Origin: a virus | Taxonomy: Duplodnaviria > Heunggongvirae > Uroviricota > Caudoviricetes | Virus record (IMG/VR): IMGVR_UViG_3300031760_000015 | Span: 43,641 to 107,640 of that record | DNA length: 64,000 nucleotides | Reading direction: 5' to 3' (one strand) | In this document: piece by piece, positions 45,470 through 47,384 of the stretch | Layout of the letters: the number at the start of each line of letters is the position of its first letter | How positions within the stretch are numbered: the first letter of the stretch is position 1 | The notes under the pieces: generated by a model | Told to the model about the DNA's origin: nothing | Seen by the model: only the letters and a program-made list of their open reading frames with translations | Database searches by the model: none | Position numbers and translations under genes: made by a program

Positions 45470-46107
45470 GAAAGGATGATAATTGTGCGTAAGACTTCTA
45501 CTCGTACTGTATTTTCTTCTTCTTGGAGCCGTCGTAAGCAGGCAGAAATGCTTGATGAATGGCAGTAAATAGCGCCGGGTCCACCTACTGGGCTTTAAAG
45601 GGAAATTGCGGTAAAATGTGAGAAGCGCTACCGCTTGGTCTATGAAATTGAATCCGATTCAGACGGTGACAATGGAGACTCCTTAGAGGTTAATGCTAAT
45701 CCTTATCTGAATAGTATAAGAAAAGCAGGGCAAATAAAAAAGCGGTATAGATTTTGCCTATTAAAGACTATACCATTATTCTAGAAGGCGGTATCGCCAG
45801 ACGTTCTTCTAACGCCTCTCATAGAAGCGCACCACTAGAAGACTTATTACCTAGGTAGTTGCGGCGAACAACATTAAAAATCGCCCATTGTTAACAATGT
45901 ATAGCGGCGTAATGGTCGTGGACGCACCCTGTTCGAGGAGTGTCGATCTAAGGGCTTCTTAGTGTGGTTCAGAAGTAAAAGGAGCAAATATCGAACAACC
46001 ACACGCTTATTTATTAAGGCTAAACCTGATAGCCTATACATTAGCAGCGTACTTTAAAGTACTGCCCAAGTAACCATCTAGCTGCGTGAGGGTTACATCA
46101 GGTATAT
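45470..46107 (+). ncRNA. GC-rich (about 45%) ORF-free structured block upstream of tRNA-Leu(TAA)
   Basis: no ORF >62 codons in any frame; numerous GC hairpins (AAGCG-CTAC-CGCTT, GGCGG..CCGCC). Confidence 0.3.
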
Positions 46108-46195
46108 GCCGCGGTGGTGCAACTGGCGAGACACAGCAGACTTAAAATCTGCCACGCAAGATACATTACCGGTTCAAATCCGGTTCGCGGCACCA
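46108..46195 (+). tRNA. tRNA-Leu(TAA), type II
   Basis: anticodon arm GCAGA-CTTAAAA-TCTGC, long variable arm, T-arm CCGGTTCAAATCCGG, CCA. Confidence 0.6.
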
Positions 46196-46250
46196 AGGAC
46201 TACTGTTCTCACTTCATACGTCCTATATAAACATTCTAGAAGTGAATTAT

Positions 46251-46335
46251 GGGGCATTGGACTTAGGCGAACATGGCACAGCCGGCGGACTCAAAATCCG
46301 CGTCTTTCGGGGTTCGAATCCCCGATGCCCTACCA
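46251..46335 (+). tRNA. atypical tRNA-like, anticodon CAA, with about 8 extra nt in the D region (contains CACAGCC)
   Basis: acceptor GGGGCAT/ATGCCCT, anticodon arm GCGGA-CTCAAAA-TCCGC, T-arm CGGGGTTCGAATCCCCG, CCA. Confidence 0.4.
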
Positions 46336-46336
46336 C

Positions 46337-46365
46337 TTGACTTTCTTTTAAAATTATAGTATAAT
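46337..46365 (+). promoter_or_regulatory. sigma-A-type promoter TTGACT-N17-TATAAT
   Basis: -35 46337-46342, -10 46360-46365. Confidence 0.5.
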
Positions 46366-46395
46366 AATTACAGTAAAGAGAAAGGAACTAATTAA

Positions 46396-46596
46396 ATGGA
46401 TTTAATTGAACAACTTGAAACCTTACGAATTTCTGATAATGATTTTTTTGGACAAAGTTATGAAAAACAATGCGCTTATGCTCGCGCGAATGCGATGTTA
46501 GACGATTGCCTAGAAATCGTTTGGAAATGGTTATTAGATAATAATGCACTAGATAAAGTAGAATACCTTAGAAAAAGAGTTCATTTTAATACTTGA
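46396..46596 (+). CDS. hypothetical protein
   Basis: ORF track. Confidence 0.45.
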   Translation: MDLIEQLETLRISDNDFFGQSYEKQCAYARANAMLDDCLEIVWKWLLDNNALDKVEYLRKRVHFNT

Positions 46597-46621
46597 CTTA
46601 TAATAAAAAATTTGTTATAAT
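46593..46621 (+). promoter_or_regulatory. sigma-A-type promoter TTGACT-N17-TATAAT
   Basis: -35 46593-46598, -10 46616-46621. Confidence 0.5.
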
Positions 46622-46623
46622 AA

Positions 46624-46688
46624 ATATGTAAGAACGACGATTACAGCAATTAATAAGTAAACATAGCTATTGGAGTTATTTCTACTGT
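46624..46688 (+). ncRNA. E4a: stem (ACGACG/CGTCGT) + ATTACAGCAATT motif hairpin element, no tRNA inside
   Basis: motif 46632-46643 directly 3' of the stem 5' strand. Confidence 0.45.
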
Positions 46689-46702
46689 TCGTCGTGCTGA
46701 TT

Positions 46703-46777
46703 GAAATTAAAGGCGGATACAGCAATTTTATATTTTAAGTAATAATCTGTTAAATTATCGCACTTAATAATAACCGC
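46703..46777 (+). ncRNA. E4b: stem (AGGCGG/CCGCCT) + ATACAGCAATT motif hairpin element
   Basis: motif 46709-46719. Confidence 0.45.
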
Positions 46778-46786
46778 CTAGAAATT

Positions 46787-46864
46787 ATGGGCTTGTGACG
46801 TAACTTGGCAAACGTACGGCGTTTAGACCGCCGGTTCTGAAGGTTCAACTCCTTTCAAGCCCAC
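46787..46864 (+). tRNA. tRNA with anticodon TAG (Leu) but class I (5-nt variable loop), A73
   Basis: D-arm ACGT..ACGT, anticodon arm CGGCG-TTTAGAC-CGCCG, T-arm GAAGGTTCAACTCCTTT, CCA. Confidence 0.6.
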
Positions 46865-47384
46865 CAGTCACCTCCCGCTAATGTGACAACCGTTAACATT
46901 TGTTTGATAGTTTCTGTTGGAAAACGGTATATAAAGAAGCAACAGCACATATCAATCGGACGAGTTGCTACGCCGGTATGATTGAAACTATCGTGGCATC
47001 ATTGAAGAGCCTTCACGCGGCGATGCTGTTTAAACTAATCTTCAACTTGCTGGCGATTTGTCGTAAGTCAGCGCCAACCAAATATTGAAGAGCGGCCCAT
47101 CCTTTACTTGCAAGACTGTGATGGGACTTGAACCGCAAGGGAGATTTGTCGAGTCGGAACTCGTATAAGAGAAGCCGGGGTGCGCAAGAAAGCCAGGATA
47201 AGAGTTGGACCGGCCTGGATGAAAGACGTTCACTTCAATATTTAAGTTATCCGCTGACCAATATGCGGGATATAAATAGTTGGGTATAAATTAAGATATT
47301 TTAAGGTAGCATTGGTGTCATGAGCCAATGAGATAAGATGCTCCTACATCAGCTTAAAATATAAATATAAATAAAATCATAGGA
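46865..47384 (+). ncRNA. GC-rich ORF-free structured block between tRNA and HNH gene
   Basis: hairpins GTCAC..GTGAC, GCAAC..GTTGC; no convincing ORF. Confidence 0.3.

Follow-up and report, generated by a model that had tools for sequence, protein, structure and literature searches.

Structured RNA modules and a predicted theta ribozyme in two GC-rich, gene-free blocks of a rumen-type phage tRNA island

Clusters of transfer RNA (tRNA) genes in phages are usually read as devices of codon supply or as protection against tRNases. The locus studied here raises the question of what lies in the gene-free stretches between such tRNAs. It belongs to a rumen-type phage of about 185 kilobases (kb), represented by a metagenomic contig (ENA ERZ27256908, k141_1838729), of which a window of 64,000 nucleotides (nt) with 33% GC was analysed (IMG/VR record IMGVR_UViG_3300031760_000015, positions 43,641 to 107,640); all coordinates below count from the first letter of the window. 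An earlier note on this DNA had described two GC-rich blocks without open reading frames (ORFs), at 45470-46107 (block 1) and 46865-47384 (block 2), and had proposed that they hold structured non-coding RNA, perhaps ribozymes, intron remnants or tRNA mimics. Two GC-rich, gene-free blocks are indeed present. The proposal was partly right, as structured RNA and one ribozyme are supported, and neither intron remnants nor tRNA mimicry. In the locus, three known RNA classes are represented by members or variants, in contexts new to them, alongside four unclassified structured RNAs.

The GC content is 0.426 in block 1 and 0.421 in block 2 against 0.331 for the window, whose 500-nt windows have a standard deviation of 0.059 and reach 0.44 in 4.6% of cases. 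The other two blocks named earlier are alike in composition (0.434 and 0.467), and the three tRNA-Leu genes and the HNH gene were found where they had been placed. No ORF longer than 82 codons is present in either block on either strand. Since TAA stops are present in all six frames of both blocks, reassignment of TAG or TGA cannot hide a gene there; read-through of either stop was tried as an alternative genetic code and opened no long frame. The claimed lack of coding potential held for most of the sequence and failed at the 5' edge of block 1, where a micropeptide gene of 27 amino acids (VRKTSTRTVFSSSWSRRKQAEMLDEWQ; 45485-45568, + strand) starts with GTG behind the ribosome-binding site GAAAGGA. 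Ten or more related loci keep the peptide, its ribosome-binding site and its frame, and show synonymous changes and indels that preserve the frame. Because 45485-45568 is coding, non-coding block 1 begins at 45570. Block 2 is GC-rich RNA as far as 47230, and its remainder (47231-47384, GC 0.305) consists of a decayed promoter and the leader of the HNH gene. The micropeptide is basic/acidic and in relatives is usually encoded directly upstream of module B, which is described below.

Among the annotated phage records of INPHARED no relative was found, the matches being of tRNA size only. In IMG/VR there are about 60 related contigs of 130-200 kb; individual loci carry L numbers here. The region is hypervariable among the relatives, and the flanking gene of 179 amino acids is present in about 60. 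Searches with blastn and nhmmer against the related loci showed that the pieces of the blocks occur apart, in varying combination and order. The blocks are mosaics of about nine independent modules rather than two long RNAs. Block 1 is composed of the small ORF, module B (45570-45634), module C (45637-45732), an orphan stretch (45733-45804), module D (45805-45842) and module E (45858-46107). Block 2 is composed of D-I (46867-46994), a ribozyme (46995-47045), a hairpin (47046-47078), D-II (47080-47230) and a promoter remnant. All of them lie on the + strand.

The ribozyme and the structured RNAs of block 2

Conservation in block 2 is highest in AAGAGCCUUCNCGNGGCGAU, a stretch that also lies immediately 3' of tRNAs in unrelated phage contigs. 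[quoted passage not shown] P1 pairs 46995-47000 with 47022-47027 (GGCAUC/GAUGCU) and opens with a G1.U wobble (G46995/U47027); J1/2 is a single A. P2 pairs 47002-47008 with 47039-47045 (UUGAAGA/UCUUCAA), P3 is GCC/GGC and L3 is UUCACGC. P4 is replaced by a 7-nt linker, GUUUAAA, between P1' and the candidate catalytic C, which is C47035 at the first position of J4/2, in the CUAA before P2'. The order P1-P2-P3-L3-P3'-P1'-(J)-P2' corresponds to the topology a-b-c-c'-a'-b', a nested double pseudoknot. Self-cleavage is predicted between 46994 and 46995. Its L3 is nearly identical to L3 of the CPEB3 ribozyme, and the C-N-A-A resembles C75-GAA of HDV. The Rfam CPEB3 ribozyme model matches the L016 homologue with 22 bits. 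Of the ribozymes proposed for the blocks, this one element is supported.

A descriptor scan, in which every copy was selected with the G1.U rule, detected one copy in the window and 41 distinct ones among the fetched loci, and 0-1 in shuffled windows. Over 41-43 copies, P1 and P2 covary at every position with four to six canonical pair types each. With the catalytic base left free, 36 of 43 copies have C at its position, and CUAA is present in 27 of 43. Copies in L009 and L093 carry an insertion in the linker. The same type of ribozyme lies 3' of a drum RNA in L062 and abuts a ROOL RNA in L042. Such isolated theta ribozymes, behind D-I or drum or before ROOL, suggest that they set the ends of RNAs other than tRNAs. 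A metagenome scan with the ribozyme core yielded about ten useful loci, and among the matches listed most were chance matches in GC-rich coding DNA. A looser descriptor without the L3 constraint was rejected, as it found G.U-rich chance matches only.

The first descriptor was too strict and missed two further copies in the window, at 43893-43949 and 43305-43391, which were parsed by hand. The copy at 43893-43949 is a second minimal HDV-like ribozyme directly 3' of a tRNA-Ala-CCA, with P1 GGGCAAU/AUUGCCC (G1-C, not G.U), P3 ACC/GGU, L3 UUCACGC and CUAA; its P2, UCUCAUU/AAUGAGA, has a bulge or a 6-nt J4/2, and the Rfam model drz-agam-1 matches it with 19 bits. The copy at 43305-43391, directly 3' of a full drum RNA (43192-43303), is apparently a decayed HDV-like ribozyme with a P4-like insertion (P1 GGCGCC/GGCGCU, P3 GCC/GGC, L3 UUUUCGC, P2 of 4 base pairs (bp) only). 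Its homologue in L062 (2535-2618) is intact. In L042 a theta ribozyme (11041-11093) ends where ROOL (11092-11716) starts, with no promoter between them. The same arrangement is seen at L060 7503-7555, so that ROOL would bear the ribozyme at its 5' end. A conserved RNA of about 110 nt (GGAUGUAGGAUUAGAAGAG...) lies 5' of the ribozymes of both loci.

D-I (46867-46994, + strand) is a structured RNA of 128 nt bounded by the 3' end of a tRNA-Leu and the predicted cleavage site. Alignment of 12 loci separates this short form from a long form in relatives of about 205 nt with an extra arm. RNAalifold predicted 30 pairs in D-I, 12 of them with compensatory changes. A further helix was recognised by eye, reading ACCGUU/AACGGU, CGCGUU/AACGCG or ACCGAU/AUCGGU across loci. 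As this helix surrounds the 5' strands of two others, a pseudoknot is implied. Neither D-I nor D-II matches an Rfam family at E<=10.

Behind the ribozyme lies a variable insert hairpin (47046-47078, + strand), which is present in the window and L025 only; other relatives have other inserts or none. It is followed by D-II (47080-47230, + strand), an RNA of 151 nt; of its five helices, two are interleaved and form a pseudoknot. MAFFT with RNAalifold gave only 10 pairs for D-II with helices out of register, and single-sequence minimum free energy folds of its homologues disagree with each other. The final alignment of nine sequences was made by hand and padded with N so that MAFFT held the register; in it 96.4% of the cells are paired, against 27-42% in slid controls. 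Both sides change in 17 of 25 pairs, against 1-4 when slid, and none of 500 shuffles reached this. The covariation of D-II is strong enough to justify experiments. Its covariance model matches the window once (105.8 bits), with no second copy there, and finds 12 loci only, always just 3' of the ribozyme, L076 being the only new relative. The first conserved bases of D-II (AUUGAAGAGCG, 47083-47094) repeat the 5' strand of the ribozyme's P2 (AUUGAAGAGCC, 47000-47011). Possibly AUUGAAGAGCG competes for the 3' strand of P2 (47039-47045), which would give an alternative fold after transcription of D-II. The resemblance between the two is only partial in relatives.

At its 3' end block 2 runs into a decayed promoter (47231-47252, + strand), the remnant of one that serves ROOL in relatives and truncated in the alignment at its -35 box, which reads TTTAAG versus TTGACT. 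In relatives, ROOL follows directly 3' of the homologues of block 2 with a promoter of its own (298-346 bits), and their islands also hold drum, cow-rumen-3 and cow-rumen-4 RNAs. ROOL (RF03087) has no match in the whole window at the gathering threshold, nor in 45400-47450 at E<=10. A free-standing HNH endonuclease gene (47394-47954, + strand) occupies its place up to a tRNA-Asn, into which the 3' end of the gene runs. The same is seen in contig L074.

The abiF-type hairpin and the other modules of block 1

Module D (45805-45842, + strand) is an abiF-type hairpin with the outer stem UCUUCUA/UAGAAGA and the core ACGCCUCUCAUAGAAGCGCACC. Its 20-nt core, CGCCUCUCANAGAAGCGCAC, recurs in IMG/VR contigs of varied sample sets (19 stretches), in many cases no more than 20 nt from the 3' end of a tRNA. 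Phage contigs supplied at least 14 distinct sequence variants of the hairpin. All seven pairs of the outer stem change on both sides (7/7), and 92% of the cells are canonical against 54-55% when slid. By comparison of sequences, a 22-nt core does not vary among phages of 38-65% GC and equals that of the Abi_2-associated RNA. Same-core copies in other phages scored 38.8, 37.9, 35.6 and 34.1 bits with the Rfam abiF model (RF03085).

The exact core occurs five times in a collection of species-representative genomes. Three of these hairpins lie directly upstream of an Abi_2 gene (PF07751, E 1e-49 to 1e-54), in an alphaproteobacterial metagenome-assembled genome (MAG), a Verrucomicrobiaceae MAG and Nocardia salmonicida; the remaining two cores lie within coding DNA and have no stem. 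No Abi_2 gene was found within 2 kb of the phage copies, and tblastn with the three Abi_2 proteins gave no hit either in the window or in the 240 fetched loci (1.9 Mb). Since the core is that of Abi_2 leaders and no toxin gene accompanies it, module D is taken as an orphan copy of an antitoxin-type RNA. AbiF, an RNase of the HEPN type, is held to be the ancestor of Cas13. By analogy with pseudo-ToxI of phage PhiTE, the hairpin may be an antitoxin decoy against a host AbiF; being toxin-less and often right behind a tRNA, it suggests an RNA decoy against AbiF abortive infection. No report of orphan abiF motifs in phages was found in the literature searched.

Module B (45570-45634, + strand) is a 65-nt H-type pseudoknot without an Rfam match. 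AGCGC (45571-45575) pairs with GCGCU (45625-45629), and this helix is interleaved with GCGGU (45608-45612) paired with ACCGC (45630-45634). In 11 loci, the variants GGCGC/GCGCC, GACGC/GCGUC, ACGGU/ACCGU and GUGGU/ACCAC were seen by eye, and four of ten pairs have compensated variants. Module D is directly 3' of module B in five loci.

Module C (45637-45732, + strand) reads as a divergent drum RNA of the short type (RF02958, 28.1 bits, E 0.0097). No nucleotide-level homologue of it was found among the related loci with blastn or nhmmer. Its P1 is GGUC/GACU versus GGGC/GCCU and AAAC/GUUU in true drums, and the 3' helix is likewise compensated. The single-stranded blocks UAUGAA, GGAG, GGUU, GAAUAG and AAGAAAA are kept, the central hairpin contains a mismatch of 3 nt and there is no second hairpin. 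The stretch that follows (45733-45804, + strand) is unclassified and has a fold z of -2.6; its sequence permits a possible pseudoknot of GGCAAA/UUUGCC with GGUAUAG/CUAUACC and a hairpin GGCG/CGCC. It has no homologue among the related loci.

Module E (45858-46107, + strand) is a 250-nt leader composed of E1, E2 and E3, and it ends exactly at the 5' end of tRNA-Leu(UAA). Compensation is seen as GUGUGGUU/AACCACAC versus GUAUGGUU/AACCAUAC and as GUAACC/GGUUAC versus UUAUC/GAUAA. There are about three sequence types only, and the structural support is weak. Pattern scans for module E gave one new divergent relative, L104, and the hits in L099 and L100 are due to chance. On the whole, the claim of structured non-coding RNA is right, and compensatory base changes support helices in most modules. 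The Infernal/Rfam scan suggested with that claim gave drum and abiF below threshold in the blocks, and four modules (D-I, D-II, B and E) without a match. These four are candidate new RNA classes.

Transcription of the tRNA island and competing explanations

The modules share their orientation with promoters and tRNAs. All 26 tRNA genes of the window lie on the + strand, as do the roughly 13 copies of a single strong promoter, TTGACTT-N17-TATAAT; among the promoters and tRNAs of the island no terminator was predicted. From one of these copies, TTGACA-17-TATAAT (45229-45257, + strand, 12/12), ORF 45292-45468 and the small ORF would be transcribed together with block 1 and two tRNA-Leu genes, namely tRNA-Leu(UAA) at 46108-46195 and tRNA-Leu(CAA) at 46258-46335 (Rfam 27.4 bits), both on the + strand. 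Another promoter, TTGACT-17-TATAAT with a TG (46593-46621, + strand), would drive two elements named E4 (46636-46785, + strand), tRNA-Leu(UAG) with an encoded CCA (46789-46866, + strand) and block 2.

From this layout we infer transcription, cleavage and module functions as follows. Long transcripts would start at the promoters at 45229 and 46593. RNase P would cut at the tRNA 5' ends and so release module E, and ordinary 3' processing would act at the tRNA 3' ends. The ribozyme cut would free D-I of about 128 nt with a 2',3'-cyclic phosphate, which is the established chemistry of this ribozyme class, and would leave the ribozyme on the 5' end of D-II. The cREC and RNA ligase proteins of the phage could act on such cyclic-phosphate ends. 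Once released, the RNAs would act in trans, on proteins of the host or of the phage. The abiF-type hairpin, the clearest case, could neutralise an AbiF (HEPN) abortive-infection toxin. The best explanation is thus a pair of polycistronic operons of tRNAs and small RNAs, whose independent modules are shuffled, gained and lost among relatives, with action in trans preferred. We give it a probability of roughly 0.7.

Several points weigh against this explanation. Module D scores 28.0 bits (E 0.025) with the abiF model, whose threshold is 37, and module C with 28.1 bits is under the drum gathering threshold of 43 bits. Folded as a whole, the blocks have energies no better than those of shuffled sequences (z = -0.5 and -0.6); this z is uninformative, so the evidence for structure is comparative and not thermodynamic. 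For D-II and module B, alignments of 9-12 sequences of about five types were fitted to the structures by hand, which inflates the apparent support for both, although the slid controls argue against an artefact. Module E and the stretch 45733-45804 have little or no comparative support. The cut lies 128 nt beyond the tRNA, which places the window ribozyme in the isolated subgroup of theta ribozymes. Moreover, D-I, D-II and module B occur in a few related rumen phages only and could be processing spacers of that lineage instead of RNAs that act in trans.

The last point leads to the rival that the modules are structured cis-acting spacers, that is, leaders and trailers which aid the folding, processing or stability of the neighbouring tRNAs (and in relatives of ROOL) and would serve no purpose of their own after release. 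Every module lies between tRNAs or beside the ribozyme; the end of module E coincides with a tRNA 5' end, and the start of D-I with a tRNA 3' end. The modules are also lineage-restricted and freely lost, and theta ribozymes were proposed to serve tRNA 3' maturation (PMC10879173). D-I, module E and module B may be pure processing spacers. However, a spacer has no need of pseudoknots in which 17 of 25 pairs are compensated, nor of an invariant 22-nt core identical to that of an Abi_2-associated RNA, and L005 and L066 process the same tRNA without D-II. As an account of all the modules we consider it rather unlikely.

Two further readings would deny the modules a present role as separate small RNAs. 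Each block could be one large ornate RNA of the GOLLD/ROOL type or a decayed ROOL, considering that the niche beside phage tRNAs is the same, that ROOL is found directly downstream of block-2 homologues and that the size of 0.4-0.5 kb is similar. But ROOL and GOLLD gave no Rfam match at E<=10, ROOL is absent from the whole window, the pieces occur independently in relatives and the modules are not bridged by long-range helices. Since L009 possesses D-II as well as an intact ROOL, D-II is no remnant of ROOL. This leaves the large RNA very improbable. The same low standing is given to the idea that the blocks are intron remnants, the scar of an HNH/GIY-YIG mobile intron, or decayed genes, in any case functionless now. 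No group I or group II signal was found in the whole window, nor at the blocks at E<=10, the three tRNA-Leu genes are intact, and the free-standing HNH ORF is not inside any tRNA and lies upstream of tRNA-Asn, even though HNH and GIY-YIG genes flank the region, the HNH gene displaced ROOL and truncated its promoter, a tRNA-Asn with an insertion of about 50 nt adjoins, and 45733-45804 has no homologue. No frame of a decayed gene is recoverable. Compensatory substitutions show that selection on RNA structure is ongoing, and covariation likewise contradicts the degraded pseudogenes that the earlier note had named as its refutation. For its tRNA mimics there was no evidence in the blocks as such.

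A wider reading of the polycistronic operons is offered tentatively, as less likely than not. The tRNA islands would be RNA counter-defence arsenals, in which the abiF-type hairpin is an orphan antitoxin that holds the AbiF toxin of the host inactive, the other RNAs are decoys or scaffolds and the theta ribozymes serve as general punctuation, beyond the maturation of tRNA 3' ends. If so, drum, B, D-I, D-II and ROOL would be protein-targeting decoys or scaffolds, and the theta ribozymes would release RNAs with 2',3'-cyclic-phosphate ends for cREC and RNA ligase. To our knowledge, no function has been assigned to ROOL, GOLLD or drum since their discovery.

Several features of the surroundings should also be recorded. 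The genes upstream of the tRNA island (about 36700-42400) encode Band_7, DUF5662, PTH2, DUF2828 with a DUF7788 vWA domain, cREC_REC and RNA ligase. The RNA ligase (PF09414) and cREC_REC (PF20274, a 'cyclic-phosphate processing' receiver) are 4-6 kb upstream. This cluster of RNA-repair type fits the handling of RNA ends that ribozymes or anticodon nucleases of the host would leave. The region is flanked by HNH and GIY-YIG genes. The HNH ORF crosses the 5' half of tRNA-Asn(GUU) (47895-48017) and stops within the insertion of about 50 nt, which lies in the anticodon loop and lengthens the anticodon stem. This tRNA was missed by ARAGORN and scores 51.8 bits with the Rfam tRNA model; in relatives the tRNA-Asn at this place is intact. 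Other tRNAs of relatives have similar insertions of 45-70 nt, e.g. tRNA-Leu(UAA) in L009 and L076, and the related loci are L062 5795-5917, L009 about 2750-2885, L076 from about 2893, L069 5441-5557, L073 3363-3479 and L055 6806-6937. These insertions are much too short to be group I introns; an RNA ligase is encoded by the phage.

The two E4 elements each contain ACAGCAAUU and are closed by the stems ACGACG/CGUCGU and GGCGG/CCGCC. The word ACAGCAAUU occurs seven times in the window (1.2 expected), at 15969, 28545, 46643, 46719, 49231, 49876 and 50085, all on the + strand and always just 3' of a short stem strand. A tRNA-like T-arm (GGTTCGA/GGTTCAA) is also present in the copies at 28545, 49231 and 49876, one of which was called tRNA-Phe(aaa) by ARAGORN. 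The E4 copies look like odd tRNA-like genes with a replaced D-arm. Relatives also have a tRNA with the anticodon CUA, called 'Pyl' by ARAGORN (L076 12085-12174, L077 1401-1476 and L023 3089-3175). It is likely an amber suppressor, and some relatives may recode TAG. No CUA tRNA was found in the window, where the + strand ORFs of at least 150 codons end with TAG in one case, TAA in 35 and TGA in seven. Elsewhere, 32400-33600 has a very strong strand skew (GC skew -0.5, AT skew +0.3) with degenerate ACN/CCN-rich repeats phased by 12 nt, which suggests a Thr/Pro-rich repeat protein region.

Relation to known RNA systems

Theta ribozymes are minimal HDV-like ribozymes without P4 from gut Caudoviricetes, 58% of which lie at tRNA 3' ends, and four tRNA/ribozyme pairs self-cleaved in vitro (Kienbeck et al. 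2024, PMC10879173). In the phages that carry them, RNA ligase is enriched 140-fold, and for the 42% that are 'isolated' the authors left the role open (PMC10879173). In other members of the class, a Mg2+-dependent self-scission that is lost on a C-to-U change was demonstrated in vitro. The window copy has in common with this class the nested double pseudoknot, G1 paired with U, a 3-bp P3, a 7-nt L3 (UUCNCGN), C-N-A-A before P2' and the lack of P4. Like the class, it lies in the tRNA region of an animal-gut phage that encodes RNA ligase. Unlike the tRNA-associated members, whose cleavage site is within 5 nt of the tRNA 3' end on either side, it would cut 128 nt past the end of tRNA-Leu(UAG) (46866), behind the structured D-I.

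With drum RNA, module C has P1, the 3' helix and the conserved blocks in common, and the window also has a full drum (70.8 bits), 2.4 kb upstream of it. In contrast to the full drum, module C has no second hairpin, as is also the case with the 60-bit 'short' drum of L009, and no terminator, and its central hairpin is weak. ROOL and GOLLD (PMC5737381, PMC12286853) have a common niche with the modules, in phages and beside tRNAs with which they are probably co-transcribed. However, they are 580-800 nt long versus 65-250 nt for the modules, and no match in sequence or structure was found.

The closest counterpart of module D is the abiF motif RNA. In Clostridioides difficile this RNA, RCd22, was shown by experiment to be an antitoxin that binds and neutralises the AbiF toxin (PMC12373285). 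Module D resembles it in the outer stem of 6-7 bp, the inner 3-bp stem, the loop CUCUCA..GA and the 3' internal loop CA...C. It differs in having one copy instead of two and no U-rich terminator tail, in the lack of an Abi_2 gene in the phage and in its position within a tRNA operon. The only comparable case known to us is the pseudo-ToxI of phage PhiTE, which reportedly is an RNA mimic of a type III antitoxin. Its toxin is said to be ToxN and not AbiF/HEPN, and it reportedly consists of tandem repeats processed by the toxin instead of a single hairpin. Pseudo-ToxI is a phage-borne copy of a host antitoxin RNA that travels without the toxin gene, which is the logic proposed here for module D.

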